From assembly GCA_934501435.1 (NCBI GenBank), contig CAKSTW010000003.1, positions 67,842-131,841 on the forward strand: 64,000 bases of DNA. The letters are read 5' to 3'. A program made the translations under genes and the position numbers. Numbering within the stretch: the stretch's first letter is position 1; every line of letters starts with the position of its first letter. Under the pieces are notes generated by a model, which made no database searches, was not told where the DNA came from, and was given only the letters and a program-made list of their open reading frames with translations. Of the stretch, positions 35,185 to 54,486 are shown piece after piece. Origin of the DNA: an uncultured Eubacteriales bacterium (GTDB taxonomy: Bacteria; Bacillota; Clostridia; Oscillospirales; UBA644).

Positions 35185-36324
35185 TTATTCCTTCCCGCGC
35201 TTTTTACCGCCCGCATTTTCGCTCGCCTTGAAATTATATATCGGCTTGATGATTTTCTCGACGATTACGGTTTCTTTTATGTTATTCATTATTTCTTCCA
35301 TCGGTTTATACACCATGGGACATTCATCGATTGTATCTCTTGCGACAGAAGTGGTAAAAATGCCTTCCATTGATTTCTCGAACGCGCTCAAAGTAAAGGA
35401 ATCAAAAGCATCTTTTCGGCTCATCAATCTTCCTGCGCCGTGAGGAGCGCTGCAATTCCAGTCTTCATTTCCGAGTCCCGTGCAGATAAGGCTCCCGTCA
35501 CGCATGTTCATGGGAATCAGGAGACGCTCATCTTTTTTTGCCGACACGGCACCTTTGCGGAGGATCATCGTATTAACATCAACATAGTTGTGGATTGTTG
35601 TAAAGCTGTCATCTTCCGTTAATTTCATACCGTCGAGAATCACTTCTTTGATTACCGTCCGGTTCAGATCGGCGAAAGCCTGCATAAACTCCATGTCATG
35701 TAAATAGTCCTGCATTTCATCACCGCTGAGATATGCAAGTTCATACGGAATCTCGGTCTGATTTTTGCCGCCGCAGGCATTGTAAGCCTTTTTCTGATAG
35801 TATTCCGCAACACGCAATCCGAGATTTCGACTTCCCGTATGTATTACCAAATATAAGTTGTCCTCATGATCTTTATCTATCTCGATAAAGTGGTTGCCTC
35901 CGCCAAGAGTCCCGATGCTTTCCTTGGCGCGACGTATATCAACCTTTCCGACGCAGCGCAGGTCATAAATATCAAGGCGGCCGTGACTTCTGTGGCTTCT
36001 TTCCCGAACTTCTCTGCCATACGGAATATTTTGACGGATGAAACTGTCAAGTTTAGGCAGATCGACCCTTTTTTCTTTCAGTTTTACTGTCAGCATTCCG
36101 CATCCGATATCTACTCCGACGATGTTGGGAACGATTTTATCTTTAACTGTCATGGTTGTCCCGATAGTACAACCTTTTCCCGCGTGCACATCCGGCATAA
36201 TCCGGATTTTGGATTCAGCAGAATAAGGCTGATTACAGAATGTCCTGATCAATCCCTCGGCAGAGGCCTCAAGGGTGTCCGTAAATATTTTCGCTGTCCC
36301 GTATTGTCCTTTAATTTCTATCAT
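35185..36324 (-). CDS. rtcB: RtcB family RNA 3'-phosphate ligase
   Basis: MPDVHAGKGCTIG, GGGNHFIE, HTGSRNLG and SAPHGAGR (nucleophilic His region). 379 aa. Confidence 0.9.
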   Translation of the reverse strand: MIEIKGQYGTAKIFTDTLEASAEGLIRTFCNQPYSAESKIRIMPDVHAGKGCTIGTTMTVKDKIVPNIVGVDIGCGMLTVKLKEKRVDLPKLDSFIRQNIPYGREVRERSHRSHGRLDIYDLRCVGKVDIRRAKESIGTLGGGNHFIEIDKDHEDNLYLVIHTGSRNLGLRVAEYYQKKAYNACGGKNQTEIPYELAYLSGDEMQDYLHDMEFMQAFADLNRTVIKEVILDGMKLTEDDSFTTIHNYVDVNTMILRKGAVSAKKDERLLIPMNMRDGSLICTGLGNEDWNCSAPHGAGRLMSRKDAFDSFTLSAFEKSMEGIFTTSVARDTIDECPMVYKPMEEIMNNIKETVIVEKIIKPIYNFKASENAGGKKRGKE

Positions 36325-36385
36325 TTGTTTTCTCCGTTTCTATATATTACGTCGCGGACGGTCTTTGAAAGACGCAAAGAGCGCA

Positions 36386-36928
36386 TCATACGATTATTGT
36401 CTCCCTGAAACATGCGTTGTTGATTTGCATCTGTTCAAAAGTCACAGGTTCAAAACCGTTGATGTCTGCTCCGGCGTTCAGCAGACGCGGATTGTTTTTA
36501 ATAACCGACCGGTAAGGCAGGGGTATGTTATTGTGAATATGTCCGTGAACCATATAACTTTTCAGTTCGTGCTTCCAGCACATCAAAGGATAATGACAAA
36601 GCACGAGACTGTGTTTGCCGTCCGAAACCTCTATGAAATGGTCAACCGAAAGAAAATAGCGTGAAGCGTCCAACCTTTTTAACCAACCGCCGTCATGGTT
36701 CCCGACAACGAGCCTTTTCCTGCCTTTAAGCTGCTTTAGAATTTTTTCGGGATCTTTATGTTTGTAAAACAGGTCCCCGACTATATACACGGTATCATTC
36801 CCGGATACCCTTTCGTTCCACCGCTCAATCATAAAGCTGTCCATTTCCTTGACGCTTTTGAAAGGGCGGCGGCATAAATCGATAACGGCTCCGTGTCCGA
36901 AATGTGTGTCCGCTATAAAGAAAAGCAT
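36386..36928 (-). CDS. calcineurin-like metallophosphoesterase
   Basis: FIADTHFGH (DxH), IVGDLF (GD), VVGNHDG (GNHD), GHIH. 180 aa. Confidence 0.8.
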   Translation of the reverse strand: MLFFIADTHFGHGAVIDLCRRPFKSVKEMDSFMIERWNERVSGNDTVYIVGDLFYKHKDPEKILKQLKGRKRLVVGNHDGGWLKRLDASRYFLSVDHFIEVSDGKHSLVLCHYPLMCWKHELKSYMVHGHIHNNIPLPYRSVIKNNPRLLNAGADINGFEPVTFEQMQINNACFRETIIV

Positions 36929-36947
36929 GATTCGATCTCCGTTAATT

Positions 36948-38255
36948 TCATTTTGTTTTATTCCAATACCGGTCGATCTCCCGCTGCATATTCTCGCGTC
37001 CGACAGGGTTCATTGTATGCAGTTTAACAGGATAATGGGTTTTTCTTTCGGCAAGCCAGTCAATCAGTTTGATTCCGTCACCGCCGTCGGAAGCGTAATC
37101 TCCCAGATCATGGTCGCAGTTGATTTCATCAATAACGGCATATTCTTTTTCACACTCGATTATCTTTTTTATTGCCTCATTGACACTGCGGCAGTGACAG
37201 TATCCTTCCGGCGCTTTTCTGACATCGTCAAGCCATATTTTAATATGCTCCGGCTTGGATAATCCCGCCAGGATCATACCTGACTTCAAATAATCAAGAG
37301 GAATACTGTTTTCCGCATACCCGGCAGTGATTATCTGATGATAAGCGCGGGCGAAAAGTGCCGGATCTATTTCATCTTTCAGGAAATTACCGAGAGCAAT
37401 CAGAGTTCTTTTTGAACCGGTCAGTTCCTTATCATAGAATTCAAGATCCATATAGTTTGCCATACACTCTCCGTAAATACTGCCGTCCTCTCTTAAGAAA
37501 AATCCTCCGGCACACATGTCGGAAAAGTCGCCGTTTTTTCTGAGATTGTCTTTCAACTTATCGTTTTCGATACCGTCAAGGCAAACTCCTGTCGTCACAA
37601 ACGGACCGGCACAGATTCCATCCGGTTTATTCGGATCCCATACTATATCGCCCTTTTTAAACGGTGTCGGAAAGTCAAACCAAAGACCGTCGAAAACACC
37701 GAAAAACAAATCTTCTTCATTACTGTCAACGGGTCCGGGGTAAATGCGCAGAAAATCAAAGGAAGGGGTCAGATACGCAATTTGCCGCGAATCCAATCCA
37801 TCTATCTGCATTTTGGTGCATTGAATGGAGATAACGTCGTCTTCCGGCTCCATAATGCTTTCATATAAAGCATCAAAGCATGAAAATACCGTATCCCATT
37901 CGTATTCGGAACCGTCTTTGTAAATGTATTTGAATTTGTAAACAAACGGCTTGTCATCGTCAGAAGTGTCGGCAGGTTTCTCATCACGGAACTTGTCAAT
38001 ATACTTACTTTCAATCTCCATATACTGCTTCAGAAAAGCGTGAAGACTATCCTGCGGGACAGTGTTCAATCGTTCCGCTATCCGGCAATCCGGCATCTTT
38101 TCAATCAGTTCGTTCCACGCTTTATGCTTTTCGTCAACAGTCGCGCCGCGGCACTGATAGATAAGCCATGCAGCCTCAAGAGAATTAAATTCATAACCGA
38201 TATTTCCGAGGTATTCTCTTATATCTTCGGAATTGACAAATCTTAATATATCCAT
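36948..38255 (-). CDS. protein with a C-terminal cyclic-phosphate-processing receiver-like (CPR) domain; the N-terminal ~330 aa are unknown
   Basis: The track ORF starts at GTG 38264. ATG 38255 lies 8 nt after SD GAGGAG. The C-terminus IKIWLDDVRKAPEGY...INCDHDLGDYASDGGDGIKLIDWL...VKLHTMNPVGRENM matches my recollection of the CPR/receiver-like domain described in RtcB-centred RNA repair systems. Confidence 0.7.
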   Translation of the reverse strand: MDILRFVNSEDIREYLGNIGYEFNSLEAAWLIYQCRGATVDEKHKAWNELIEKMPDCRIAERLNTVPQDSLHAFLKQYMEIESKYIDKFRDEKPADTSDDDKPFVYKFKYIYKDGSEYEWDTVFSCFDALYESIMEPEDDVISIQCTKMQIDGLDSRQIAYLTPSFDFLRIYPGPVDSNEEDLFFGVFDGLWFDFPTPFKKGDIVWDPNKPDGICAGPFVTTGVCLDGIENDKLKDNLRKNGDFSDMCAGGFFLREDGSIYGECMANYMDLEFYDKELTGSKRTLIALGNFLKDEIDPALFARAYHQIITAGYAENSIPLDYLKSGMILAGLSKPEHIKIWLDDVRKAPEGYCHCRSVNEAIKKIIECEKEYAVIDEINCDHDLGDYASDGGDGIKLIDWLAERKTHYPVKLHTMNPVGRENMQREIDRYWNKTK

Positions 38256-38315
38256 ACGTTTCACTCCTCATATATTTATTTTTCAGGTCTGTTTCTCTAT
38301 ATATAATACAACAAT

Positions 38316-38532: not shown

Positions 38533-38575
38533 GCATCGTGGTATAATATATAAAATCGGGAAAGGATAAAGAGAC

Positions 38576-38779
38576 ATGGACGAATTGAAGGATAATCAAA
38601 ATGTCGAAACAAAAGAATTGGTCAGGCAGTATCTAAAGAAAAAATATCACGATGATCAATTTTCAGATGCGGATTTGAAATTTCTTGCAAGGTTTTCTGT
38701 AAAAAAGGAACCCAAAGAAAGCGAAATAATGAAAAGCCTTGGCCTCATCAGCGACAAGGGAAGGGTGCAAGACTATTGA
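38576..38779 (+). CDS. hypothetical 67-aa ORF, possibly the frameshifted N-terminus of the HNH gene
   Basis: SD GGGAAAGGA lies upstream of ATG 38576. The ORF overlaps the next ORF by 41 nt in another frame, near the run AAGGGAAGGG. Confidence 0.4.
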   Translation: MDELKDNQNVETKELVRQYLKKKYHDDQFSDADLKFLARFSVKKEPKESEIMKSLGLISDKGRVQDY

Positions 38780-39206
38780 AGCCGTTAAAAAGGCAAAGGA
38801 TTGTATCCAAAAAATCTATGAGCGCTTTAGCACCAAAAGAAATAGCCAAACGAAAAAGGAAAAACCCGTAAATGTTTTTGACGATGACTTCGAAACTTTT
38901 TTGGCTTGGTGGTGCGAAAAAACGCCTGAGGACGGAATACGGCATTGTTGTTATTGCGGGATTGATGAAAACACGCTAAAAAATGCTTTTGAAAATGGGG
39001 TAGTTATCTCTAAAAAACCATCTTTCAGCGGAGAATTACAGATTGAGCGTAAGGATCCCAACGGGGATTACTGCCATGATAACTGTGAGTTTGCCTGCGT
39101 GATCTGCAACAACGCAAAAAGCGATATGATCTCTGCGGAGGACTTCACAACATACTTTATTCTGGGTATTAAAGAATACTGGGAACATATCAATGGAAAA
39201 TTATAG
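38739..39206 (+). CDS. HNH endonuclease domain protein
   Basis: CCYCGIDENTL...ELQIERKDPNGDYCHDNCEFACVICNNAKSD is a Cys-box HNH. The track start is a TTG with no SD, so the real N-terminus is unclear. Confidence 0.6.
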   Translation: MASSATREGCKTIEAVKKAKDCIQKIYERFSTKRNSQTKKEKPVNVFDDDFETFLAWWCEKTPEDGIRHCCYCGIDENTLKNAFENGVVISKKPSFSGELQIERKDPNGDYCHDNCEFACVICNNAKSDMISAEDFTTYFILGIKEYWEHINGKL

Positions 39207-39263
39207 TGCTTGCGGTGAAAATCTCATTATTCTTTTAACGCAAGGCACAAGGAGGCCTTTTCT

Positions 39264-40775: not shown

Positions 40776-40840
40776 ATCGGAAAAAATCTCTCGGCACCTT
40801 ATAATAAGCAGTAATTGTCGAACATTTTTTACAATGAAAT

Positions 40841-40893
40841 CAGCACAGCCGCCGAATCACTTTATTTCGGGGCTGTGCTGTCATTTTCTTTTT
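40841..40893. terminator. intrinsic terminator between convergent genes
   Basis: CAGCACAGCC-N20-GGCTGTGCTG followed by TCATTTTCTTTTT. Confidence 0.7.
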
Positions 40894-40965: not shown

Positions 40966-41763
40966 TCACGTCTCCCAACTTATGCAATTCAAGACTCCCC
41001 CGTCCTCGGCTATACCGTTTATATTCACGGTAATTATTTCTTTATCAAAAACTTCCTTTGCACATTTTACCGCCGTTTTATCCTTTTCATTACCGAAAAT
41101 CGGCAGGAAAATATGTCTTTCTGTTTCAAGAAAATTCAAGTAACAACCGACAGCGCTTATGCCAACGGAATCAATATACGGAAAGTCAACAACCGAAATG
41201 CCGTGTTTTTCCAACGCCTTTTTAACCTTCTGCTCGTAACCGTTGCATGACAAGGCATTACCGAGAATCGTGTTTTCATCTATAAATCGCACTACGCCGT
41301 CCGCATGACCTGTCATATCGCTTTTAAGCGACGGAATAATAATTATCCCGGCTTCAAGCAAGTTTTCAAGTTCGGTTAAAAGAGTGTTTTTATCATATTC
41401 GGGATTTTCCGAAAACACTCTGTCCGAGATAACTGCTTTTGTTTTAGAGGGTGAAAACACAACATTTCCGCCGTCAAGATTGATGTTTGAATATGTAATC
41501 GGCAAACCGAAATGCGGCGCGATATCGACTTTAAAATTTGTTCTTAATTGCGGATAGCCCGCAAGGTACCCCGGCTCATACCGAAACGATATATATTTAC
41601 CGCTTTGGGTTTTGACCGGCATATAATCTCTTGCCCAGATATCCTTTGCTCCGTCAAAAAGAGTAAATTGTTCGCCGTGATCGGATAAAGCAGAAAACAA
41701 ATTCTCCGCCGATAACGAATATTGGGGGTTGGTTTTCAGAAGTGATGAAAAATATAATCTCAT
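40966..41763 (-). CDS. agmatine deiminase / PAD_porph-like guanidino-group-modifying enzyme (pentein superfamily)
   Basis: DIWARDYMP (D.W.RD..P); NLDGGNVV; MTGHADGVVRF (TGH.D); CYLNFLETERHIFLPIFGNEKDKTAVKCAKEVF; C-terminal DGGVLNCISWE (GG..HC.T-type Cys nucleophile). Its ATG shares 1 nt with the upstream stop (TAATG). Confidence 0.75.
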   Translation of the reverse strand: MRLYFSSLLKTNPQYSLSAENLFSALSDHGEQFTLFDGAKDIWARDYMPVKTQSGKYISFRYEPGYLAGYPQLRTNFKVDIAPHFGLPITYSNINLDGGNVVFSPSKTKAVISDRVFSENPEYDKNTLLTELENLLEAGIIIIPSLKSDMTGHADGVVRFIDENTILGNALSCNGYEQKVKKALEKHGISVVDFPYIDSVGISAVGCYLNFLETERHIFLPIFGNEKDKTAVKCAKEVFDKEIITVNINGIAEDGGVLNCISWET

Positions 41764-42314
41764 TATTTAAAAGTAACTTCAGCAGAATAGTTGAATTTTA
41801 AATGTTCATTGCTATCTATATTTACTCTCTCTTCTGTATTAAATGAGAGCGTGTCAATTTTATCGCTCAAAAGCAGAGAACATCCATAAAGAGAAAATTT
41901 TCCGTGACAATCACAATAATCAGGTTTACTCTTATACAAATGCAATTCCTTTGCTATGCCGTCAGGTCCAAAGCATATCCCGTTTTCATCTTGAATTTCC
42001 TTTATCAGGACATTGTCAGAGTAAACATTATCGGTGACCGATAAAAGCAATTGACCGCCATATACACACCATGTTCCCGGTGTTGAAAACAATGGCGCAG
42101 AAACAGCATTTTGCGCTTCAGCCTTTGTCTTTTCAGCACCATAACATATTTTCTTTCCTTTATTATCATATTCTTCATGGTAATAAGCTTCTGTGGATGT
42201 AATCATATATTTTTTTATTCGGTTGCCTCGCTGAAAAGTAATTGTCGCTCCCAACAAACCCTTGGCAACAGTAGCAGCATCTTCCTTAAAAAAATCTTGT
42301 GTAAATTTGCTCAT
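41763..42314 (-). CDS. divergent AAG/Mpg-fold (3-methyladenine DNA glycosylase-like) protein
   Basis: FFKEDAATVAKGLLGATI...YMITSTEAYYHEE matches the LLG...IVETEAY motif. TPGTWCVYGGQLLLSV...NVLIKEI matches the G..YVY..YG...LN.V...VLIRA motif. GPDGIAKEL matches GPGKL. An insertion follows the TEAY motif. TGgTATAAT and SD AAAGGGAG lie upstream. Confidence 0.65.
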   Translation of the reverse strand: MSKFTQDFFKEDAATVAKGLLGATITFQRGNRIKKYMITSTEAYYHEEYDNKGKKICYGAEKTKAEAQNAVSAPLFSTPGTWCVYGGQLLLSVTDNVYSDNVLIKEIQDENGICFGPDGIAKELHLYKSKPDYCDCHGKFSLYGCSLLLSDKIDTLSFNTEERVNIDSNEHLKFNYSAEVTFK

Positions 42315-42409
42315 TTCAAATTTCTCCCTTTGTTTTTACTCCATTATACCACGCTTAAACAGCCTACCGTCCGCGGCGATTTCTAAGGTGATTTAACTGT
42401 CAAAAGGTA

Positions 42410-43351
42410 TCACGCATCGGTCGTTTTACCGCAAAGTTTTTCTTTGATCCGGGTTTTATACCCGATAAACTCCGAATTATTCGGGTCAACAGAAAGCACA
42501 TAGTTTATCCGTCCCAGCAGTTTCCTCAAATAAACAGTCTCGTTATCCGTATTTCCTTTCTTTTCAAGATGACTCCTGATTCCGTATTTTTTACAATAGT
42601 ACATCTCCTGTCGGACATTCTTTCTGTACGATGCTGCCACATTCGGTTTTTGATTGACAACGATCCCGGTAACAGACATTTTTTGTCCATTACATACACA
42701 AACCGTCTTTTTTTCATTTAAGAAAAAACCGAGTTTTCCGAGTTCGCCTGATACAAAACATTTCAAAACCGACGGTTCAAAGACCCCCGAAAAAGTCATA
42801 TCGTCACAGTAGCGTGTATAGGTTATTCCTCTTTCACGGCACCAACTGCCGACAGTATTATCAAAATCCCGCATAATGATATTGGATATTGCCGGAGATG
42901 ACGGTGCGCCCTGCGGCAGACAGCCTTTATAACAGCACAAGACAGACAGCAGAACCCCGTTCGACTCGGAAAAAATTCTGTCATTGAAAACAATATTTCT
43001 GACAAGCGCATAGGTAATTTTATCAAAGAAATGCCGGATATCAAGTTTCAGCAACATCGCGTGTCCTGCATGCGGCTTTGCATTTTTCAAAGGGCTGCCG
43101 CCGAATCGGTATGCGGTTGCATACGGAGAAAGTTCGATTCGGTTCAGAATGACATTCGTAATTTTCTTTTGCACCGCTTTAAGCTCTTCATCCGGAACAA
43201 ACAGTTTGCGGTATTCGCCGTTTCCTTTGGGAACAGACGTTTCATGATAATGCGAATTGATTGTATTGCTGAGAGTGTACAACATTTTTGCCGAGCATCC
43301 GAGATCGGTTTCGAGGGAGGAATGCTCCCGATAGATAATCATATTTGGCAA
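42410..43351 (-). CDS. retron-type reverse transcriptase
   Basis: 313 aa. LKNAKPHAGH (NAxxH); LLKLDIRHFFDKI (motif A); LPQGAPSSPAISN (motif B); YCDDMTFSG (motif C); MSVTGIVVNQKPNV (retron VTG motif). SD GAGGGAGG. A structured non-coding region lies immediately upstream. Confidence 0.9.
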   Translation of the reverse strand: MPNMIIYREHSSLETDLGCSAKMLYTLSNTINSHYHETSVPKGNGEYRKLFVPDEELKAVQKKITNVILNRIELSPYATAYRFGGSPLKNAKPHAGHAMLLKLDIRHFFDKITYALVRNIVFNDRIFSESNGVLLSVLCCYKGCLPQGAPSSPAISNIIMRDFDNTVGSWCRERGITYTRYCDDMTFSGVFEPSVLKCFVSGELGKLGFFLNEKKTVCVCNGQKMSVTGIVVNQKPNVAASYRKNVRQEMYYCKKYGIRSHLEKKGNTDNETVYLRKLLGRINYVLSVDPNNSEFIGYKTRIKEKLCGKTTDA

Positions 43352-43368
43352 TCCTCCCTCTTTTTAAG

Positions 43369-43597
43369 TAACGGAACAAAACAATGAGTATATCGAAGTT
43401 GTGGAGCTGATGAATCGTGCACATGAAGTGTGCCTAGCATCAGTGGAATCAACTTTGATTGAGCATAGCGAATGCCTGTAAATATCGCTGTCCCGATAAC
43501 GACTCGCCATCGGTGTCAATATATTCGCGGTAATACGATGTCCATTGACCTGCACTAATGTTCCGTTATCCTTTTAATCGGTTTTTAATGTTCAGGC
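43369..43597 (-). ncRNA. retron msr-msd non-coding RNA (predicted)
   Basis: Read on the minus strand. a1 UAACGGAACA (43559-43568) is complementary to a2 UGUUCCGUUA (43369-43378, 18 nt before the RT ATG). UUAGUG with a candidate branching G follows a1. Internal hairpins are CCGAU..AUCGG, AGCGA..UCGCU, AAUCAA-AG-UUGAUU and CUGAUG..GCACA-CUUCA-UGUGC..CAUCAG. Confidence 0.7.
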
Positions 43598-43603
43598 AAT
43601 TAC

Positions 43604-43632
43604 ATTATACCACCCTTTTGTTATTTTGACAA
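43604..43632 (-). promoter_or_regulatory. sigmaA-type promoter of the retron
   Basis: Minus strand TTGTCA (43627-43632), 17 nt spacer, TGgTATAAT (-10 at 43604-43609). Confidence 0.65.
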
Positions 43633-43656: not shown

Positions 43657-44895
43657 TCAACTGAATTTCGGATAATTATGCTGCATTATATTGATGTCGT
43701 GTTCAAAAATTTTCACTCGGGTGTCCGGCGCACAGACCTCCCCGATACGCAATATGTCCAGAACGGAATTCATATAAACCGATTCGTATTCCTGCGATAC
43801 ATCGGGTGAAAATCTCTTGACAATAAATCCGGCGGTAAGTTCGTTCGGCTCACTCATCGACTTATATGTTTCGTAAAACGACGGAAGCGAAAGAAACACT
43901 CCCATCAGTTCGGTTTGAAAAGATGAAGTTTCTTTTTCGGGATTTTTCAAACGCTCAACCGTATAAACAGTTCCCCGCTTTTCGCTTTTGAACTTTGCAA
44001 GAAACTCGTCTTCTGCGGCAATCATTTCCGAAAGCAAGGCGTGGACTCCCGCGATGCCTTCAGACAGAAAGCCCGTGGCGTCAACTGAAGTGTCGGGAAT
44101 ATCGGCGATTATATTTTTCAACTCCGCATGCTTTTCTTCAAGAGTCAGCCAACTGCAATTATGCACAATCACCGCCGCCTCGCCGGAGTCGAACTCATAG
44201 CGTTCATCGTCCAGGCGCTTGCGCACGCCGTCATTTTCAATCAAACGCAGCGTATTTTTTCTGATTCTTTCGGATTTATCGTCGATCCCGTTTATCAACT
44301 CTTTTTCCTTGATTCGGGAAAACAGGGCGTATTCATAAGAAAACTCTTCGAACAGCGTTTTTCTGCGGGGAAACGCTGCCGCAAGGGCAAACTCATGAAG
44401 CGTTTGCGAAAAACACGACAAATTCTCATTTTTCTTTGATTTGGAATAACTCTTGTAATCGCCGCTGTAAACAAGGTCGGTAAAAAACAGAGCCTTCTCC
44501 TTTTCACAGCCTGTCGAAATAAGGAATTCGTAAAAATCTTCCCCATACCATATATCAGCGCCGAGAAAAGCCCGTACCTGCCTGTTTACGCAACCGACCC
44601 CTTTTTGTTTCGCGTAGCGGACGTATGCCTCTGCGGCGGTTAACGGCTTCTTTATTGCTTCTTTAAGCGTTCTTACCCTTGCATCATAAAGGTCAAACTT
44701 ATGAAACAGCGTCCATACCGGACGGTGCAATACCGTACAATTCTCCTTGCCTCTCAGATATTCCAGAAACTCCAGACATTCTTTTTTTGTCGGAGCCTCT
44801 GCCGGGTCGAATGGTTTTTGGCGGCAAGAAAACGGATCCTCTTTATAAAAAGTGATATTTCCGTTTTCTCTGACACAGTAACAGCTTACTGACAT
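43657..44895 (-). CDS. hypothetical protein (412 aa)
   Basis: Track ORF 43657..44940, trimmed to ATG 44895 (MSVSCYCVRENG), 6 nt after SD GGAGGGGG. No motif recognised. Confidence 0.65.
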   Translation of the reverse strand: MSVSCYCVRENGNITFYKEDPFSCRQKPFDPAEAPTKKECLEFLEYLRGKENCTVLHRPVWTLFHKFDLYDARVRTLKEAIKKPLTAAEAYVRYAKQKGVGCVNRQVRAFLGADIWYGEDFYEFLISTGCEKEKALFFTDLVYSGDYKSYSKSKKNENLSCFSQTLHEFALAAAFPRRKTLFEEFSYEYALFSRIKEKELINGIDDKSERIRKNTLRLIENDGVRKRLDDERYEFDSGEAAVIVHNCSWLTLEEKHAELKNIIADIPDTSVDATGFLSEGIAGVHALLSEMIAAEDEFLAKFKSEKRGTVYTVERLKNPEKETSSFQTELMGVFLSLPSFYETYKSMSEPNELTAGFIVKRFSPDVSQEYESVYMNSVLDILRIGEVCAPDTRVKIFEHDINIMQHNYPKFS

Positions 44896-45045
44896 TTTTA
44901 TCCCCCTCCGTGTTTTTTCGGTTTCGGTAACCGCCCGCATTGATAATACTTTGGCTCATTATATTCCGGCAGGCGCCGAGAAACGAACTTTTATCGCCCG
45001 TCACAGACCCTTTCCGGTGATTTCCCTTTTTAAACATCTGAAAAT

Positions 45046-45423
45046 TCAGCAAAAATATCGGTAGTGTTCAGATCCGTCACTCTTTATCGTTATTGATCGC
45101 AGTTCCTTTACATTGTTTAACTCAAAGCAATCAAATATCATTTTGACGACATCTTCGTTGTTGATATCCGGATTAAGGTATATTGTCGCTTTTCCGTTTT
45201 TGATCTCAACACGTCCTCTCGGATAATAATTGTAAGGTAAACCGTTGGTAACTCTTCGATCAAGTTGCTGCCATTCGGTTTTATGATTAAAGTTATCTCC
45301 GCATTTTGAACTGTATTTAACAAACGAATCAGAATTGCCGGATGCAGAACAAGTTGTTGACACCGTTATCAATGCAGGCTGCGCGGAATCAGAATTTTTG
45401 ACCCAAAAGATACCTTTTTTCAT
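45046..45423 (-). CDS. hypothetical protein (125 aa)
   Basis: SD AAGAGG is present. Contains GDNFNHKTEW...LPYNYYPRGRVEI, which I cannot assign to a family. Confidence 0.6.
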   Translation of the reverse strand: MKKGIFWVKNSDSAQPALITVSTTCSASGNSDSFVKYSSKCGDNFNHKTEWQQLDRRVTNGLPYNYYPRGRVEIKNGKATIYLNPDINNEDVVKMIFDCFELNNVKELRSITIKSDGSEHYRYFC

Positions 45424-45465
45424 TCATCAACCTCTTTTCCGATAACCTCTGATATTTCAGGCGGT

Positions 45466-46335
45466 TTAATCTTTCAGGTCCGGGCATAAGCATTTTTTCT
45501 CATTTCGTTCCGTACTGCTTTTGCAGATAAACACCTGCCGGTTTAACGCCAGCGTTTTTTCGATGTAGTCACTCAACTCTACTGTCTCATCGGTTCGTTC
45601 ACACAAATCAAAAACGACGAGCGGCCAATTTATATGATTGAAATCTCTGATTTCTTCGACCTTTTGCCAAAACTGATTGATACTGAGATAGCACAGATAT
45701 TCAAACAAGACCGAATCGGATTCGCTTAAAACATCTCGACTGCACCTGCCGGCAGAGGAGACAATAACAGTTTCACCGTTTTCTTTGATACGAATTTGAT
45801 TGGTGTCCGTTGCTCCCGAGTTTCGGTTGTTCCATTCCTTAATATGATTATTCAGACACGATCGAAATGATCTTGTATTGCCGATACCGTCTGTCTGTTT
45901 CGAAAAATCGGTTTTGGAATAATACTTTTCAGCGTCCTTATAGTTCCTGAATCTATCTGAAAACCTGTCGCTGCTGCTGAAGGAAAAACATGACAGATGC
46001 TCCTCTTCCGAGCTTTGGTGAATCATACGGTAAAAGTCTTCGCGCAATTCGGCATCCTCGGTTTTTACAGTGTAAGCGAACCCCTGTTTATTCTTCAATC
46101 CCGACGCAGTTATGAAGTATTTCTTTCCCGATATTTCAATCTCGACTTTAATGTTCGTTCTTTCCGCCGCTTTAACTTTTTCTCCGACAAGAGATCTGCT
46201 TTTCAGAACAACACCTAACGCTTTTTTGATAACTTCTGCGTTTTCCGGGGACAGAACGACAAGTTGAGAGTCAAAAGAAGATTCATAACGGACTGTGTTT
46301 TCAAAATCTTCAATTTGTATTCTCCTGACGATCAA
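45466..46335 (-). CDS. hypothetical protein, possibly a degenerate ABC/SMC-like ATPase fold
   Basis: Track ORF 45466..46422. The best initiation signal is SD AAAGGAGAA 8 nt before TTG 46335, giving (M)IVRRIQIEDFENT. ATG 46404 is an alternative. The N-terminus resembles the M.I..I.I.NF start of RecF/SMC-type ATPases but has no GK[ST] P-loop. The C-terminal PLVVFDLCE...NRQVFICKS resembles a decayed Walker B/D-loop. Confidence 0.55.
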   Translation of the reverse strand: MIVRRIQIEDFENTVRYESSFDSQLVVLSPENAEVIKKALGVVLKSRSLVGEKVKAAERTNIKVEIEISGKKYFITASGLKNKQGFAYTVKTEDAELREDFYRMIHQSSEEEHLSCFSFSSSDRFSDRFRNYKDAEKYYSKTDFSKQTDGIGNTRSFRSCLNNHIKEWNNRNSGATDTNQIRIKENGETVIVSSAGRCSRDVLSESDSVLFEYLCYLSINQFWQKVEEIRDFNHINWPLVVFDLCERTDETVELSDYIEKTLALNRQVFICKSSTERNEKKCLCPDLKD

Positions 46336-46406
46336 CGAGTCGCTTCTCCTTTCACTTTGATCTGTTTTTACTTTGTCTCTTGCCGATAACCCAATCCGGC
46401 GCATGA

Positions 46407-48431
46407 TTATTCCGCAACACAAAATCCTATCGGATTTTTGCGTTTTTTTGCGGCGGCGGGAGGGTCTTCAATGTCTTCGGCGCAAATTGTGATAATGTCA
46501 TCTTTTGCAATATGATCAAAATCCATTTGAAGCAATCTGGTTGCCTGCGCCATTTTTGCTTTTTCAATCACATTACGGGCATAACGTCCGTTGCCGAACT
46601 CGCTTTCTTCTTTGGCAAAATCAAACAAACCGGTCAGTTTTTCACGGGCGTCTTCCGTTAATTTCATGCCTTTTTTCTTTGCAATCAGATTTGCGATCTT
46701 GCAGAGTTCATCAGTATTATAATCGGCAAAAGGAACATGAAAAGCGATTCTGGATCTTAAACCGGGATTCTTTTGAAGGAACTTTTCCATTTTATCGGGA
46801 TAGCCTGCAAAGATTACGACAACATCGTCCCTATGATTTTCCATTTCCTGAACGATCGTATTGATTGCCTCGTCTCCATAGGAACCGTCCCTGTCATCAA
46901 CGAGAGAATATGCTTCATCTATGAAAAGCACGCTGCCTTGAGCTTCGCGGAATTTCTTTTGAATCGTGGGAGCAGTCCATCCCACAAACTTGCCGACAAG
47001 ATCGCCGCGCCCGACCTCGATAAGTTTTCCTTTGGAAAGCAAATCGTTTTCCTTCATGATTCGGGAAAAGAGTCTGGCAACAGTTGTTTTTGCAGTACCG
47101 GGATTCCCGCTGAAGACCATATGCATGGCAGGTCTGTCTCTCATCATAGCCTTGTCTGCAAAGAGTTTCTGCGCCTTGTAATAATTCAACGCCTGAATTA
47201 TTACTTTTTTAGCCTCATCAACTCCGATCATTTCCATCAGTTCATCGTAAGCGGATCCCTTCGGAGCCGCCTTTACAACTTCGCGCTTTGCAGTCATAAT
47301 GTCTTTATACTGGGGGAAAACACCGGTTTTGAGTTTATTATTGAACCATTCGTCAAATATCTCGTGAAGATCCGGAGCCAAATACCCTTTCTCATTTTCA
47401 AGCGCTGAAAACAATTTCTTATCAGGTCTGATTCCATTGTCTTTTGCGAGCATTTTCAGAAACCGTTCCGCACGCTCCCCTGAAACAAAGTCTTCTTTCA
47501 ATTCAATGAAACTGATATTTCCGAGCTTCTCGCAGAACATTTCTTTTGACTTTGTACATTCGCGAGGAAGACAGAACACCGTAAGTACCAGGTTGCGGTA
47601 TTTTCTCATTATTTCACAAAGGGTTTCGATTGTATCCCTGCCGCAAGACGCGTGTTCGTTTTCTCTGTCATCGTTCGCAAGATATCTGACGATGACCGCT
47701 CCGCCTATACTGCTTTTGTAAAGGCAGTCATAAGCATCGGAAGAAAAATCATCGCCGGGCTTAAAATCAAGGAAGCAGTATCTTTTGCTGCGCAGCCTTC
47801 CGTTTAAATAAAGAGACTGAAGAAGAAGCCTATACATACTCTTGCGTGTTTCGCGATCATCGGTTTGCACAAAATAGTGCACGGGATGCCCAAAGGCACG
47901 GCGCATACTTTTTCCCGCAAATATCCGATCGAGTTCGGGAATGACAGAGTCTCTCGCAAGAAAACGGTCGGCTTCTTTATAGATTTCATCTCTTTTCGAC
48001 TCATCCAGAAGGTTTTCGCCGTATTCAACATTTCTTTCGTTTCTTCCGGTAAGCTTATCTAAACCGAAAAGTTCAAGGACCTCATCATCGTCTTCGATAT
48101 AATCGTTTTTGTCTGCACAAAAGAGCATATTCCGCGTGGCGCTCAAAGTAGTCTCTTCAATATATATGTCTTTTAAACTGATTTCAATCGCAGCCAAAAA
48201 CGATGATATCTGTTTATCAAGATTGGCAGGCTCACGGCAAATAACTCCAATGGTTGCAGTGTCTTCAGATACGCTAATAATATAGAAGAAATTTCTTTTT
48301 TTCTGCTTTTGGTTAAACGCATTTCCTTTCATGGCAATCTTGCGGACGTTTTCACGCATTATATGTCTGTTATTATATCTTTCCGACCAATCCTCATCAG
48401 TTATGATACCGTTGGCTTTGAAAAACTGCAT
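46407..48431 (-). CDS. SpoVK/CbbX-type AAA+ ATPase with a ~400-aa unknown N-terminal region
   Basis: Walker A FSGNPGTAKTTVARL, Walker B VLFIDEAYSL, VVIFAGY (sensor 1 region), NPGLRSRIAFHVPFADY. SD GGAGG. Confidence 0.85.
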   Translation of the reverse strand: MQFFKANGIITDEDWSERYNNRHIMRENVRKIAMKGNAFNQKQKKRNFFYIISVSEDTATIGVICREPANLDKQISSFLAAIEISLKDIYIEETTLSATRNMLFCADKNDYIEDDDEVLELFGLDKLTGRNERNVEYGENLLDESKRDEIYKEADRFLARDSVIPELDRIFAGKSMRRAFGHPVHYFVQTDDRETRKSMYRLLLQSLYLNGRLRSKRYCFLDFKPGDDFSSDAYDCLYKSSIGGAVIVRYLANDDRENEHASCGRDTIETLCEIMRKYRNLVLTVFCLPRECTKSKEMFCEKLGNISFIELKEDFVSGERAERFLKMLAKDNGIRPDKKLFSALENEKGYLAPDLHEIFDEWFNNKLKTGVFPQYKDIMTAKREVVKAAPKGSAYDELMEMIGVDEAKKVIIQALNYYKAQKLFADKAMMRDRPAMHMVFSGNPGTAKTTVARLFSRIMKENDLLSKGKLIEVGRGDLVGKFVGWTAPTIQKKFREAQGSVLFIDEAYSLVDDRDGSYGDEAINTIVQEMENHRDDVVVIFAGYPDKMEKFLQKNPGLRSRIAFHVPFADYNTDELCKIANLIAKKKGMKLTEDAREKLTGLFDFAKEESEFGNGRYARNVIEKAKMAQATRLLQMDFDHIAKDDIITICAEDIEDPPAAAKKRKNPIGFCVAE

Positions 48432-50203: not shown

Positions 50204-51205
50204 CTATTTGACATTTTTATTCTCATTATATTTCTTCAGTCCGCTATCCAAGATTTCTTTCATTCGATTTCTTAAGGATTCCGGTGAAACTATCTCCACA
50301 TGGTTTATGTACTGCATTGCCCAAAGTTCCATGGCGGTTGGGCTTGCTTTAACACCGACTCTGACTTTTCCTTCTTCGTTTGATTTCATGATGCGAATGT
50401 CCTTTCCGAACCAGTCGACAATTTGATCAACTATCCCCTCGTCGGCAATAAAATCAATGTATTCGGGTTTATCAGAATACATATACGGCATCGTTGAAGA
50501 TAATTCTTTATAATTGATGCCGTTTTCATAACCCGGCACGTTTTTAAGCGGAGTTGCTTTTCGGGCTGTGATTGTCATATTGCTGATACGGTCAAGTCGG
50601 TGAAATACAATATTGTGCCAGTATTCACTGTATGCCATCAAATAATAGCGTTGATTGTGCAAAATCATCAAATACGGGCTGACATATTGCTGCGAAGTCT
50701 TGTGCAGTTTTTTATCAACTCCGTATTTATTGTAATCGTAATGTATCTGTTTCCCTTCTTCTATGGCGGCATCAATTAACTCAATATTATAGAACAACGC
50801 CTGATTGTCTGTTTTGCTCCAGTCGTTCACCGAGTGGATATGTTTAACGCTTGACCTGAAATACTTGTTCGACAGAGCGCAAATACGATCAATCAGATCC
50901 TGCGAGTGGCGGGCTGTAATGTGCTTACTGCTCAACACGCCGTCAATCAGCATATGGAGTTCCGAATCTTCAAAATCGCGGCTGTCCAAATAGCTGCCGG
51001 ATCTTCGGGATTCGATTTCTATCCCGGATTCTTTTAACAAAGAAATATTACGGCTGATTGCTTTTCTTTCAATGACTATCCCGTATTCATTTTCCAGCTT
51101 TCGTGCAATATCCTCCTGCGTCATGGGATGGTCATAGTCACTGTTTTCTTTGAGTATTTGCCAAATCCTTATCAATGCAAGTTTTTTCGGTTCAAAGCTC
51201 TCCAT
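50204..51205 (-). CDS. WYL-domain transcriptional regulator (wHTH-WYL-WCX architecture; BrxR/CapW-like)
   Basis: N-terminal wHTH (LIRIWQILKENSDYDHPMTQEDIARKL). WYL core (SPYLMILHNQRYYLMAYSEYWHNIVFHRLDRISNMTI). C-terminal extension. SD AAGGAG. Confidence 0.8.
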   Translation of the reverse strand: MESFEPKKLALIRIWQILKENSDYDHPMTQEDIARKLENEYGIVIERKAISRNISLLKESGIEIESRRSGSYLDSRDFEDSELHMLIDGVLSSKHITARHSQDLIDRICALSNKYFRSSVKHIHSVNDWSKTDNQALFYNIELIDAAIEEGKQIHYDYNKYGVDKKLHKTSQQYVSPYLMILHNQRYYLMAYSEYWHNIVFHRLDRISNMTITARKATPLKNVPGYENGINYKELSSTMPYMYSDKPEYIDFIADEGIVDQIVDWFGKDIRIMKSNEEGKVRVGVKASPTAMELWAMQYINHVEIVSPESLRNRMKEILDSGLKKYNENKNVK

Positions 51206-51802
51206 ATTATAGCTCCTTGTCGTTTTCCGTATGTTAAAAACATAATCTTAAACAGATTATACCGTACCATAAAAGTCACGCCCGTTTTTGGTACATTTCA
51301 TTCTTTTATTTGCCCGCAATAATATTTATATCAACAAACACGCGGAAGGTCACCTTGATTACCGGGTCCGCATTTTATTTCTTTCCGGTCTTTTTAGGTT
51401 TTCCATTGTTCCGTAACGGTTGCCGAAGCTTTAACTTTGGCAACAAACCGATTACAATCACCTTTTACTTTATTATACTCATTTTTGAAATACGAGTCAA
51501 GACCTTAAAATTCAGGCTTTATCAAATTCACCGTAATACGACGCAGAGGAAATATCTTTTATCTTCCGGTTTCAGGATATCCGCAACTGTAAAAAGCCCT
51601 TTGCGAAAAGGATTTCTCCTCTCGCAAAGGGAAAGCTGACGAGTAAAATTTTACAGTACGGTTTTTCACAATAAAATGATACCGGAAGCAATGTACCGGT
51701 TTTGATGCCCCGCCGTTCAATTTCAATCGGTTCAAAGTTTTCTCTGCCATACCTGTCAAACATACAACGCCGCTCACATTTGTGTCTCTTCAGATCCTGA
51801 CT

Positions 51803-53785
51803 TTATTCTTCTTCGGCTACCGCGCTCTCGGATAGCATCTTTGCGAAATGTCCTTCGGTAATAATCTTCGTTCCATAGTTCAATGCAGTTGAAAGTTTTT
51901 TTGTTCCCGGCGCTTCACCGACGATCAGATAGGTTGTATTTTTCGTCACGGAATCATTTACATTTGCTCCGAGGAGTTTCAAAAGTTCGGTGATATCCTT
52001 GCGGTTCATACCGTTCACGGTACCGGTCACCACAACATTGGCATTCACAAACGGATTACCCTCTTCCCCGATTTTAACGGGCTGGTCAATAAAGGTAATT
52101 TCTTTCAAAACAGGTTTCCACAGTTTTGCTTCCGTCTCATCAGCGTACCATTTATAAATATTTCTGCTTAATGTTTGGGAAACGCCGGCAATATGAAAGA
52201 AACAAAACTCCTCTTTGATTGCTTTCTCGAAATCGTCCCACGATCCGAGAAAATATTCGTCAATCGCTCTGGCATTATTGGGTCCCATAAGCGGAATGCC
52301 GACTGCAACCAGAAACTGCGCCAGATGGCATCGTCTGCTGTTCTCAACGGCTGATATTAGTTTATCATAAGTCCCATAGCCAAATCCGGGCGTTGTCAAA
52401 ATCCTCTCGCGGTACTTTTCCAGATCATACAGATCCGCAAAGGTTTTTACAAATCCGTATGCCATCAACTTTTCGAGAACAGAGGCATTGAAGCCTTCCA
52501 TATTCATTGCATTTTTATCGCAGAATCTTGCGATTTTCTGAGCGTTTCTGGCAATACATTCTTCATTGGGACAATATAGGTTTTTTGTACCGCCGGAAGC
52601 GATCTTAAGTTCAAGTTCACTTCCGCAGCAGGGGCATCTGTCGGGAAGTTTATATGTCCCGCTCCGGGTAACGTTTTCCGAAATCTGAGGGACAATCATA
52701 TTGGCTTTATATACTTTAATTGTGTCGCCGATTCCGAATTCATACTTCTCAAAATTACTGAGAGAATGAATATCTGCCCGCTTAACATAAGAACCGTCAA
52801 TCAACACCGGATCGAATTCGGCGCAAAGAGTTATCATTCCGTTTCTTGTTGTAGCAAGTTCCACTCCACGGAAGACCGTCTCGTATTCGTCATCCTCCCA
52901 CTTAAGGGCAAGCATTCTGTTCTCATGGTGCGCAGTGGCTCCGAGGCTTTTGCCGAATGAAAGATCATTATATTCAAAAATGAGCCCGTCAACAGGATAA
53001 TCGTATTTTTCGGGATTAAAACTTTCAATGGTTTTTTTAAGCGCCGTCTCTCCGGAAAACGCATGAATAAGTGTATGTTCAACTACATCAAAGCCGTTTG
53101 CCGAGAGAAAGTCCAACTGTTCCTCTTTCGTAGTTCCGCCATCACCGGGAAGGATCAGTTCAAATGCGTAGAAATCCATATGAGAAAGGTTTCCCTTGTC
53201 GGGGGTCAGGCTTCTCACAAGCCCGGCGGCAACGTTTCGAGGGTGACTCGGTGAATTATCTCTGTTGAGCAGTTGATAATCTGCCCATGAAACAACTCCT
53301 TCACCCCGAACCTCAAAACTCTTTCTGCAATTCACTTTTTTCGGTATGTTACGGAGATATCTGACCGTATTGGTAATATCCTCGCCCACAAGCCCCTCTT
53401 CGCCTCTGGTAACGGCTTGCTTAAAGTTCCCGTCCTCATATCTCAGTACAAGAGTAAGTCCGTCCATTTTCCAGGATAACATAACATCGTTTCCGGCAGC
53501 AAAGTGAGCGACATCATCAACTGACTTTGTTTTCTTAGCCGAAAGCATAGGTCTGGAATGCTCAACTTTTTTCAGTTCGGTCTTATTACAGCCGCCGACC
53601 CGCTTTGTCGGAGAGTTTGCAAATACAATACCGGTGACGGCTTCCAATGTTTTCAGTTCATCCATTAAGGCATCGTACTCCCTGTCCGTCATGACAGGAT
53701 TGTCTTCGCCGTAATATGCTTTATCGGCGTCCTTAATAATTGAAATCAGTTCTTTAATTCTTGAAACATTATTTTTTTCCTCCAT
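51803..53785 (-). CDS. ligA: NAD-dependent DNA ligase (LigA family), divergent island-borne copy
   Basis: Domain Ia YYGEDNPVMTDREYDALMDEL; adenylation lysine SWKMDGLT; TRGEEGLVGEDIT; Zn finger CPCCGSEL...YCPNEEC; HhH region; C-terminal BRCT (VVVTGTVNGMNRKDITELL...YLIVGEAPGTKK). Confidence 0.85.
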   Translation of the reverse strand: MEEKNNVSRIKELISIIKDADKAYYGEDNPVMTDREYDALMDELKTLEAVTGIVFANSPTKRVGGCNKTELKKVEHSRPMLSAKKTKSVDDVAHFAAGNDVMLSWKMDGLTLVLRYEDGNFKQAVTRGEEGLVGEDITNTVRYLRNIPKKVNCRKSFEVRGEGVVSWADYQLLNRDNSPSHPRNVAAGLVRSLTPDKGNLSHMDFYAFELILPGDGGTTKEEQLDFLSANGFDVVEHTLIHAFSGETALKKTIESFNPEKYDYPVDGLIFEYNDLSFGKSLGATAHHENRMLALKWEDDEYETVFRGVELATTRNGMITLCAEFDPVLIDGSYVKRADIHSLSNFEKYEFGIGDTIKVYKANMIVPQISENVTRSGTYKLPDRCPCCGSELELKIASGGTKNLYCPNEECIARNAQKIARFCDKNAMNMEGFNASVLEKLMAYGFVKTFADLYDLEKYRERILTTPGFGYGTYDKLISAVENSRRCHLAQFLVAVGIPLMGPNNARAIDEYFLGSWDDFEKAIKEEFCFFHIAGVSQTLSRNIYKWYADETEAKLWKPVLKEITFIDQPVKIGEEGNPFVNANVVVTGTVNGMNRKDITELLKLLGANVNDSVTKNTTYLIVGEAPGTKKLSTALNYGTKIITEGHFAKMLSESAVAEEE

Positions 53786-53858
53786 ATCCGCACCTCTTCT
53801 TTTCTTTATACACGAATTATAGCAACAGTAATGTACCGATTATATCCCGCTGAAAATT

Positions 53859-54476: not shown

Positions 54477-54486
54477 TGTGAACTCC

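Follow-up and report, generated by a model that had tools for sequence, protein, structure and literature searches.

An Ec107-like retron beside an AAG-fold/pentein enzyme module in a variable island of a gut Clostridia chromosome

The window considered here, i.e., the whole stretch of 64,000 nucleotides (nt) that was analysed from contig CAKSTW010000003.1 of an uncultured Eubacteriales bacterium, carries three consecutive open reading frames (ORFs) on its minus strand, which encode the reverse transcriptase (RT) of a retron (42410-43351), a protein resembling the DNA glycosylase AAG (41763-42314; the respective family is termed AAG-A in the following) and an enzyme of the pentein superfamily (40966-41763). 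A preceding sequence-only reading had described these genes, together with a promoter and a structured non-coding RNA (ncRNA), as a candidate new retron type in which the two enzymes would serve as effector of the retron. All of the described elements are present at the positions and on the strand given for them, and the observed features are far beyond chance (E = 1e-125 for the RT in PADLOC, E ~1e-9 for the AAG fold and 74 bits for the pentein family PF04371). The observation is thus confirmed and the interpretation is partly supported: both the retron and the enzyme pair are real, but linkage between them is absent across the clade to which the RT belongs. The reading favoured here, with somewhat better than even confidence, is that of separately evolving neighbours, the retron being more likely a neighbour of the enzyme pair than its obligate partner. 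The AAG-fold/pentein pair is an autonomous and so far unannotated module of gut Clostridia and, being a previously undescribed two-enzyme pair, is more novel than the retron it adjoins.

The joint between the two cassettes

Comparison of the window with its nearest relatives on either side places a joint between the two cassettes at 42357-42424 (minus strand). The nearest RT relative (locus L014) was found to be homologous to the window (82% nt identity) from within the retron promoter, where homology reaches up to 43623, to position 42425, which precedes the RT stop codon by about 15 nt, whereas homology (79-85% nt identity) to the nearest relatives of the enzyme pair, L096 and L097, which possess no RT and the pair of which is 77-91% identical, begins at 42352-42356, at the AAG gene's own TGGTATAAT box. 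This box had already been attributed to the pair in the sequence-only reading and is, as read from the sequence, an extended -10 promoter of the form TGgTATAAT (TGGTATAAT; 42343-42351, minus strand). It is kept in the RT-less relatives, where an identical TGTGGTATAAT is located upstream of the AAG gene, and similar TGTG-TATAAT boxes occur in L001, L117, L008 and L013. As loci without RT possess the same promoter, the pair is independent of the retron for both its promoter and its persistence. A second line of evidence comes from the loci L103 and L107 of another lineage, whose flanks are 96% identical and whose difference is the presence or absence of a 1,416-bp segment which comprises exactly the ncRNA and the RT gene. 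The separate ends of homology and this indel therefore identify the retron as a discrete cassette. Judged from these alignments, the window is composed of two cassettes with separate histories, which were joined across about 60 nt, and the junction is evolutionarily recent.

If the enzyme pair were the effector of this retron, homologous RTs were expected in the sequence-only reading to keep AAG-like or pentein genes as neighbours. Among the best 80 species-level loci of RT relatives (49-81% identity to the window RT, all from gut or rumen Clostridia), neither AAG-A, nor a second AAG-fold family introduced below (AAG-B), nor the pentein was found within 6 kb of the RT in any locus (0/80) by tblastn and by profile hidden Markov models (HMMs), which gave 46, 12 and 48 matches in the module loci serving as positive controls. 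For the clade of the window RT the expected linkage is hence missing, and as the nearest module relatives are devoid of an RT as well, the assignment of the pair as effector of this very retron was not borne out. No gene family is present in more than six of the 80 loci as a conserved neighbour, and the genes downstream of the RT relatives form a random housekeeping set (pyridoxal-phosphate enzymes, peptidase M13, SpoIIID, RimM, ABC transporters, GNATs). With no common neighbour and random downstream genes, the RT clade is therefore reasoned to consist of free-standing ncRNA and RT cassettes. The window RT resides deep within this effector-less clade, its nearest relatives being L014 (81%) and L015 (68%). 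Earlier, 59 RTs without associated protein were reported for the Ec107 branch (Mestre et al. 2020, PMC7736814), and an effector family consistently linked across the RT clade, by which a retron type is defined in the sense of that work, was not found among the 80 relatives. Two other neighbours of the retron were considered as effector and rejected, namely the 427-aa upstream gene (p427), which lacks a recognised domain and for which none of the 80 RT loci contains a homolog, and the Cas4-like DUF2779 gene, which none of these loci carries and which occurs without RT in L001 and L097. DUF2779 comes after the RT in L102, L106, L109, L124 and L117.

The retron of the window is genuine and complete, as it comprises promoter, msr-msd RNA and RT. 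Its promoter, rightly described as strong, consists of TTGTCA, a 17-nt spacer and a TG-extended TATAAT (43604-43632, minus strand) and scores 11/12 against the consensus. Downstream of it, a non-coding stretch of about 200 nt is closed by a 10-nt inverted repeat, whereby a1 (43568-43559, TAACGGAACA) pairs with a2 (43378-43369, TGTTCCGTTA). The msr-msd ncRNA was assigned to 43367-43570 (minus strand) based on its fold, on compensatory changes and on a covariance model. The fold is more stable than that of all 200 shuffles (z = -3.4); the upstream regions of RT relatives align to the non-coding region of the window, and the ncRNA is conserved over 25 of these relatives, in the alignment of which 21 of the 27 consensus pairs show a compensatory change in at least one sequence (at one a1/a2 pair, for example, 13 sequences have CG and 10 have UA). 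The RNAalifold consensus predicts two hairpins in the msr and, besides the a1/a2 stem, the tip of the msd hairpin, which is CTGATG...CATCAG in the window. A candidate branching G, invariant among the relatives, is located at 43555 in a UUAG just 3' of a1. The covariance model R1, built from sequences of RT relatives, matches window positions 43367-43570 with 161 bits (E = 4.5e-33), and a search of the window and the ncRNA region against Rfam returned no retron or other family at the retron locus. For the RT, a length of 313 aa had been given, corresponding to an ORF which extends to a TTG at 43351; this TTG is located only 1 nt past the GGGAGG Shine-Dalgarno sequence, an ATG at 43342 is properly spaced from it, and gene callers give a 310-aa RT on contigs that are 94-96% identical. 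Because both the Shine-Dalgarno spacing and the gene callers favour the ATG, the RT most likely starts there and is 310 aa in length (42410-43342, minus strand). Its best PADLOC model is RT_Ec107-like (E = 1.1e-125; RVT_1, E = 1e-18), followed by models of type III-A (RT_III-A, E = 1e-97), and the motifs NAKPH, YCDD and VTGIVVN named in the sequence-only reading are all seen in its translation, with NAKPH and VTGIVVN representing the NAxxH and VTG motifs of the retron clade. The retron is therewith an ordinary member of a known clade, which presumably produces multicopy single-stranded DNA (msDNA).

The AAG-fold protein, the short pentein and their module

The AAG-like gene (41763-42314, minus strand) starts 95 nt past the RT stop codon and codes for a protein of 183 aa, both as described before. 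Its match to PF02245 (35.3 bits) is above the Pfam gathering threshold and covers the N-terminal 68 of 181 profile positions only. An AlphaFold2 model of the protein (predicted local distance difference test score, pLDDT, of 91.8) was compared with the Protein Data Bank (PDB) by Foldseek, whereby matches 1-9 were all human AAG (query-normalised TM-score 0.65-0.73, E 1.7e-9 to 1.5e-7, 16-19% identity), and according to this prediction the protein has the AAG fold. The AAG-A family comprises 88 clusters of 37-90% identity, nearly all of about 180 aa. Across 48 sequences, E42 and Y44 of ETEAY are invariant and align to the ETEAY of human AAG, and further invariant segments are CYG, PGTWC.YGGQLLLS and DNVLIK. 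Of the AAG motifs claimed for the window protein, TEAY, VLIK and GP.G..K.L hold, and the alleged G..Y.YG is really G..C.YG (GTWCVYG). An insertion and the loss of the D.A.H motif were likewise correctly recognised: the D.A.H segment is not conserved in AAG-A and an NGK..CYG insertion is found in its place. Alignment by motif further suggests that PGTWCVYGGQLLLSV puts a Gln at the position of the wedge Tyr of YIIYG, and the lesion-pocket and DNA-wedge residues of AAG (His136 of D.A.H, Tyr162, Asn169) were not found in AAG-A. No PDB chain was retrieved at E <= 0.1 when the AAG-A profile was searched against PDB sequences.

The stop codon of the AAG-like gene overlaps the start codon of the pentein gene (TAATG), which was noted before and identifies the two genes as translationally coupled. 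The pentein (265 aa; 40966-41763, minus strand) belongs to the agmatine-deiminase/PAD_porph family, with its match to PF04371 reaching 74 bits at a cut-off of 25 and spanning profile positions 73-319 of 321. When aligned to the H. pylori AguA structure 3hvm, its WARD, GHAD and NC fall on the catalytic Asp, His and Cys. Over 28 diverse members, residues W43, R45, D46, D97-N100, H153, D155 and C260 do not vary, and the motifs W.RD, TGH.D and GG..NC, as named in the sequence-only reading, are present in the window protein and invariant across the family; the catalytic set of Cys, His and two Asp is thus intact. The protein is not of full length, as about 70 N-terminal residues are missing and the alignment starts at 3hvm residue 77, nor does it reside in a polyamine-pathway context, its neighbours being AAG-fold, Sel1, WYL, DUF2779 and similar genes. 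A possible intrinsic terminator 3' of the pentein gene, weakly indicated by a consensus scan match only, is located at 40840-40855 (minus strand), about 110 nt below the pentein stop codon. Short penteins 30-35% identical to that of the window are found on plasmids and in large Bacteroides phages: on the Flammeovirga pectinis plasmid NZ_CP034564.1 (L130, 4561-6388) unrelated small ORFs are tightly coupled to the pentein, which adjoins Rep/ParA/ParB and an exonuclease, and the Bacteroides phage SJC03 (L131) carries a related short pentein at 4704-5756.

Among the contexts of the AAG-like family (38-91% identity), the AAG gene is followed by the pentein gene almost everywhere, mostly without an RT. 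Such RT-less contexts comprise NikA and a relaxase (L008/9), housekeeping genes (L010-12), FtsK/Toprim/Sel1 (L013) and many metagenome contigs. Clustering of the neighbouring genes revealed a common core, which is made up of a Sel1-repeat protein (~232 aa), a 54-aa ORF, the AAG-fold protein and the pentein, with a CPCC/DSPc-like protein of 231 aa sometimes following 3' of it. Over 20 module lineages, defined at 85% AAG identity, the pentein was counted in 16, the 54-aa ORF in 13, Sel1 in 12, the RT in six, the 125-aa gene in five, and WYL and DUF2779 in four each. In L001 and L002, which derive from a related species, the flanking DUF2779/cREC genes (82-85% nt identity) and the pentein gene are kept, and homology to the window ends 9 nt beyond the pentein start codon, the coupled upstream gene encoding an unrelated protein of 240 aa. 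The family of this protein (AAG-B) comprises 187 clusters and is Pfam-less, and its motifs VEAYYY, D.N.H, GYGGFDICLS and LSFLLKA resemble those of AAG. For the AAG-B model (pLDDT 93.8), the six best PDB matches are all human AAG (E ~4e-6), so that on the predicted structure this second partner family likewise has the AAG fold. By hhalign, the two AAG-fold families were related with a probability of 4% only, and their shared fold is visible by structure prediction alone. AAG-B is found in the same layout as AAG-A, i.e., between the Sel1 and 54-aa genes on one side and the pentein gene on the other. As the pentein tree cuts across the two AAG types (the L001 pentein, for example, shares 81-87% identity with its counterparts in the window and in L096), the AAG-fold gene was therefore exchanged at least three times beside near-identical penteins. 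In a further variant, cREC_REC, a 56-aa ORF, AAG-B and the CPCC protein occur together without a pentein, and in L111-113 the pentein gene is intact.

PADLOC holds no model for the AAG-like protein, the pentein, p427, the Sel1 protein, the 54-aa protein, C6 or the AAG-B family, and literature searches combining retron with deiminase, PAD_porph with defence, pentein with phage and agmatine deiminase with conjugation retrieved nothing relevant. The statement that no known class possesses such effectors therewith stands, insofar as neither a published retron class nor a PADLOC model covers the pair.

Retrons beside the module and the readings weighed

In the favoured reading, the first cassette is a free-standing Ec107-like retron without dedicated effector, and the second an autonomous operon in which a base-flipping, N-glycosylase-like AAG-fold protein is coupled to a short pentein hydrolase, with the AAG-fold gene behaving as an exchangeable specificity cassette. 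As to how the pair works, the following model may be proposed at low confidence. The AAG-fold subunit may select and excise, or bind, a purine-type base, possibly in an invader's nucleic acid or nucleotide or, as a toxic act, in that of the host. The pentein may act on this substrate as well, or on a protein, by hydrolysing a guanidino or amidino group. As a unit, the pair might be a conflict effector, in defence or counter-defence, the activity of which could be gated by its upstream partner, be it Sel1/54-aa, cREC, an ATPase or, in some loci, a retron.

Several points weigh against the view that retron and pair evolve as separate neighbours. Ec107-like retrons are located within about 1.3 kb of the module in six of the 20 lineages, a number obtained by a search that began from the module and the sampling of which is biased; all six adjoining RTs are Ec107-like and nearly all come with an ncRNA of their own. 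Next to the window (RT, AAG-A, pentein), these cases are L137 (ncRNA, RT, 25 nt, AAG-B, pentein), which is a tight operon without intervening promoter, L136 (RT, AAG-B), the L102-type loci (AAG-A, pentein, C6, ncRNA, RT), L117 (AAG-A, pentein, WYL, ncRNA, RT, DUF2779) and L139-141 (Sel1, 54-aa, AAG-B, pentein, RT). In the window, L136 and L137 the retron is found in place of Sel1/54-aa, in the same slot, which looks like the swapping of a sensor module. Given that the retrons of this clade otherwise reside beside random genes, chance alone does not explain six juxtapositions. Moreover, no terminator was predicted between the RT and AAG genes of the window (42357-42424), and its RT-AAG-pentein arrangement is stable across several independent metagenome samples (94-96% identity). 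Concerning the enzymes, the isoelectric points of both AAG-fold families are near-neutral to acidic (median 6.1-6.5), which is odd for a protein binding the DNA backbone and gives duplex DNA no preference as substrate over nucleotides, small molecules or a protein-bound target, and the biochemical mechanism of the pair as outlined above is pure inference. As to the six juxtapositions, both functional recruitment, with the retron serving as an alternative 'sensor', and a shared cargo pool of mosaic islands and conjugative elements are possible explanations.

On these grounds a true tripartite retron of a new type has to be considered, in which RT and msDNA would sequester or license the AAG-pentein effector until phage perturbation of the msDNA releases it; this is a serious, albeit tentative, alternative. 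It is added by this reading that retrons would have taken over a stand-alone, Sel1/54-aa-gated system, in the way type I-A retrons took over Septu, and a precedent of retrons co-opting stand-alone defence modules has been reported (PMC12819146). Apart from immediate adjacency, shared orientation and the absent terminator prediction, it can draw on the order RT, AAG-fold, pentein being found independently, with the other AAG family and operonic, in L137, on the RT being followed by AAG-B in L136, on the L102-type loci, L117 and L139, where a retron is located 3' of the pair, on the RT being the most frequent non-core neighbour (6/20 lineages) and on the RTs of L103, L136 and L137 forming one subclade (63-66% identity), with all three adjoining the module. 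These points are to be set against the 80 nearest RT relatives, none of which carries the module, and against the nearest module relatives, which do without an RT under the same promoter. RT presence is furthermore polymorphic within three of the six RT-linked lineages, the gene order varies, with the RT either preceding the pair or following it behind C6 or WYL, the RT-linked cases were sampled from the module side and are thus biased, and WYL, DUF2779 and AAA genes recur almost as often, the RT being only slightly ahead of the 125-aa gene, WYL and DUF2779 among the neighbours after the core genes. Across groups, the module-linked RTs are only 37-45% identical. That Ec107-like retrons repeatedly recruited the AAG-pentein pair, that a retron can replace the Sel1 sensor and that the window represents a functional new retron type is accordingly conceivable and, for the time being, rather doubtful; under such recruitment the pair would be the core of a new combinatorial system consisting of sensor slot, 54-aa protein, AAG-fold specificity subunit and pentein/CPCC partner.

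Improbable, though in accordance with part of the contexts, is an explanation by which AAG-pentein, Sel1 and 54-aa serve conjugative and integrative elements as a module for counter-defence or establishment, and not the host as a defence effector, with the retron being unrelated cargo of the same accessory regions. The module does reside beside NikA and a relaxase (L008/9), beside a type IV secretion system (T4SS) coupling protein and RepA_N (L007) and beside FtsK/Toprim/Sel1 (L013), PcfJ-like proteins are also found near module loci, and related short penteins occur with a small upstream ORF by Rep/ParA/ParB on the Flammeovirga plasmid and in Bacteroides phages; that plasmid leading regions abound in anti-defence genes has been reported (PMC11541004). 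The AAG-like family, however, was not found in 72,556 PLSDB plasmids, 50,697 phage records (INPHARED) and the IMG/VR contigs, several of its loci are chromosomal and located between housekeeping genes, and the island of the window harbours no relaxase or T4SS genes within the 64 kb. An ordinary housekeeping Mpg for alkylation repair and an AguA for putrescine synthesis, which by chance adjoin a retron, can be regarded as effectively refuted: both proteins do score above Pfam gathering thresholds and some sources label family members '3-methyladenine DNA glycosylase' or 'agmatine deiminase family', but the AAG-like match spans only a third of PF02245 at 16-19% identity to AAG, the profile fails to find any PDB sequence as mentioned, and the pentein is short by its N-terminal residues and devoid of polyamine-pathway neighbours. 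In addition, the pair is strictly coupled, of patchy distribution and subject to swapping of its AAG families, and it resides among conflict-type neighbours in variable islands and conjugative-element contexts, so that the sequence-only reading was right in not taking the enzymes for housekeeping orthologs.

Separately evolving neighbours thus being preferred, the proposal of a candidate new retron type is retained in a weaker form: the recurrent association of the module with 'orphan' retrons, which is operonic at least once, is a good testable lead and not an established new retron type. To our knowledge, Ec107-like retrons represent one of the largest retron clades, to which neither an effector nor a biological role has been assigned and which for decades has been taken for orphans devoid of effector and phenotype, and a recurrent, sometimes operonic AAG-pentein neighbour offers the first concrete candidate role for them. 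Dozens of gut Clostridia lineages have kept the module, for which PADLOC has no model, and its AAG subunit was swapped between families sharing only their fold. We know of no description of a base-excision fold being paired with a guanidino-group hydrolase in defence, counter-defence or repair. The substrate of the module could reveal new nucleic-acid or nucleotide chemistry, with modified purines (e.g., amidino-7-deazaguanines), ribosyl-guanidine linkages and protein arginine among the candidates. For genome scans, the locus calls for caution, as adjacency alone overstates the assignment of effectors to retrons in mosaic islands.

Some of the RT-linked loci show features of their own. In L137 (2980-7066), the retron, AAG-B and pentein genes are followed 3' by a WYL-WCX regulator, a GmrSD-like protein (PADLOC HEC-05, E = 1e-149) and a SpoVK-like AAA ATPase; the context is a clear defence island, and an RT of the L137 type was not found in IMG/VR. 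L103 possesses a direct repeat of about 45 nt, the copies of which are located at the 3' end of the RT gene (9373-9417) and about 750 nt downstream (10169-10213) and flank a 155-aa minus-strand ORF; the repeat could be a recombination or cassette-boundary site. The Ec107-like RT of L139 (6583-8265; also L140 and L141) is 560 aa in length due to a C-terminal extension of about 180 aa without Pfam match. Upstream of it, a compact a1/a2 pair (GCAGTCGGCGG...CCGCCGACTG) and a conserved GCGAGTCG motif are found, and the clade covariance model did not match this upstream RNA.

Island context and comparison with known systems

The locus resides in a variable conflict island of about 26 kb (roughly 35-61 kb of the window) in a gut Clostridia chromosome, bordered by teichoic-acid/LicD genes on one side and by lysyl-tRNA synthetase on the other. 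It comprises RtcB, a Metallophos phosphoesterase, cREC_REC, a DUF2779/Cas4-like protein, the AAG-pentein module, the retron, three domain-less ORFs, a SpoVK-like AAA ATPase, a WYL-WCX regulator, a LigA-like ligase, DUF2201-VWA, MoxR and an SNF2 helicase, and several of these gene families reappear around the module in distant genomes in shuffled order. RtcB, the phosphoesterase and cREC_REC (35185-38264, minus strand) form a conserved trio of RNA-repair type which adjoins the module, and in L145-148 a cREC_REC protein occupies the Sel1 slot directly 5' of the AAG-fold gene. Taken together, these two observations hint that the module may concern RNA damage or repair and not DNA. Between the cREC_REC and DUF2779 genes, a 683-bp segment (38567-39249) is located that is missing from L003-L005, the contigs of which are 96-98% identical; its ORF (38739-39206, plus strand; 155 aa) is Cys/His-rich and HNH-like and has no Pfam match, and by its sequence the segment looks like a small mobile insertion. 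Between the retron and the SpoVK-like AAA ATPase (46407-48431), three ORFs of 427, 125 and 318 aa without recognised domains are found (43657-46422, minus strand), of which the 427-aa gene is limited to the lineage of the window; the 125-aa family and the AAA ATPase reappear near the module in distant genomes. A run of conflict-type genes (50204-61068, minus strand) is made up of the WYL-WCX regulator, the LigA-like NAD-dependent ligase with BRCT, a 211-aa ORF, a DUF2201 metallopeptidase-VWA, the MoxR-like AAA protein and the SNF2 helicase of 1315 aa, and may be a separate multi-gene system. The Rfam matches at gathering level in the window are restricted to a T-box leader (869-1110, minus strand, 100.6 bits) and a glycine riboswitch aptamer (7664-7745, minus strand, 51.5 bits), which are ordinary Firmicutes regulatory RNAs.

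Among known retrons, the one of the window is closest to Retron-Eco5 (Ec107) and the Ec107-like clade (clade 2, Mestre et al. 2020), with which it shares the RT (a match to the clade HMM at E = 1e-125), the upstream msr-msd with a1/a2 repeats, the invariant branching G in UUAG and the lack of a conserved effector, the latter seen both in the 80 relatives analysed here and in the work of Mestre et al. (PMC7736814). It differs in its host, which is a gut Clostridia bacterium and not E. coli, in its msr-msd sequence, for which Rfam has no matching family, and in that an AAG-fold/pentein operon directly adjoins the window copy, as is the case in a few other lineages. Type III-A retrons, which consist of RT, a phosphoribosyltransferase (PRTase)-like protein and a winged helix-turn-helix (wHTH) protein (e.g., Retron-Eco11), provide the next-best RT models and form the sister clade of the Ec107-like retrons, but a PRTase or wHTH gene is not found at the locus of the window and the adjoining enzymes are of unrelated folds. 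The likeness to type II-A (Retron-Eco1/Sen2, with an NDT-like N-glycosidase) is conceptual only, in that the fold of a hydrolase of N-glycosidic bonds is located beside a retron; the fold is NDT-like there and AAG/FMT-C-like here, the RT clades differ, and effector linkage is conserved across the type II-A RT clade but not across that of the window RT.

With regard to the enzymes, AAG-A resembles AAG/Mpg (PF02245; human AAG, B. subtilis YxlJ) in its predicted fold (TM-score 0.70-0.73) and in the N-terminal F..A..LLG, TEAY and PGT motifs, but is set apart by its low identity, the NGK..CYG insertion, the lost D.A.H, an apparent Gln at the position of the wedge Tyr, its acidic to neutral isoelectric point, its invariable coupling to a pentein or CPCC protein and its conflict contexts. 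The pentein shares with AguA and the Porphyromonas-type PAD (PF04371; 3hvm) the Cys/His/Asp set and the motifs WxRD, DGGN, GHxD and GGxxNC, from which it is distinguished by its short N-terminus, by coupling to an AAG-fold protein, by the lack of a polyamine context and by homologs on plasmids and phages. Finally, Brig1 and Dag1/Dag2 were reported as defence glycosylases which target modified phage bases (PMC11078745; 10.1101/2025.10.29.685425). By analogy, a glycosylase fold of repair type may have been repurposed in variable or defence loci here as well, and the targeting of modified bases would be a plausible logic for it; Brig1 and Dag are single genes with UDG-like or other folds, none of them AAG-fold and none paired with a pentein, which sets the AAG-fold/pentein module apart from these systems.

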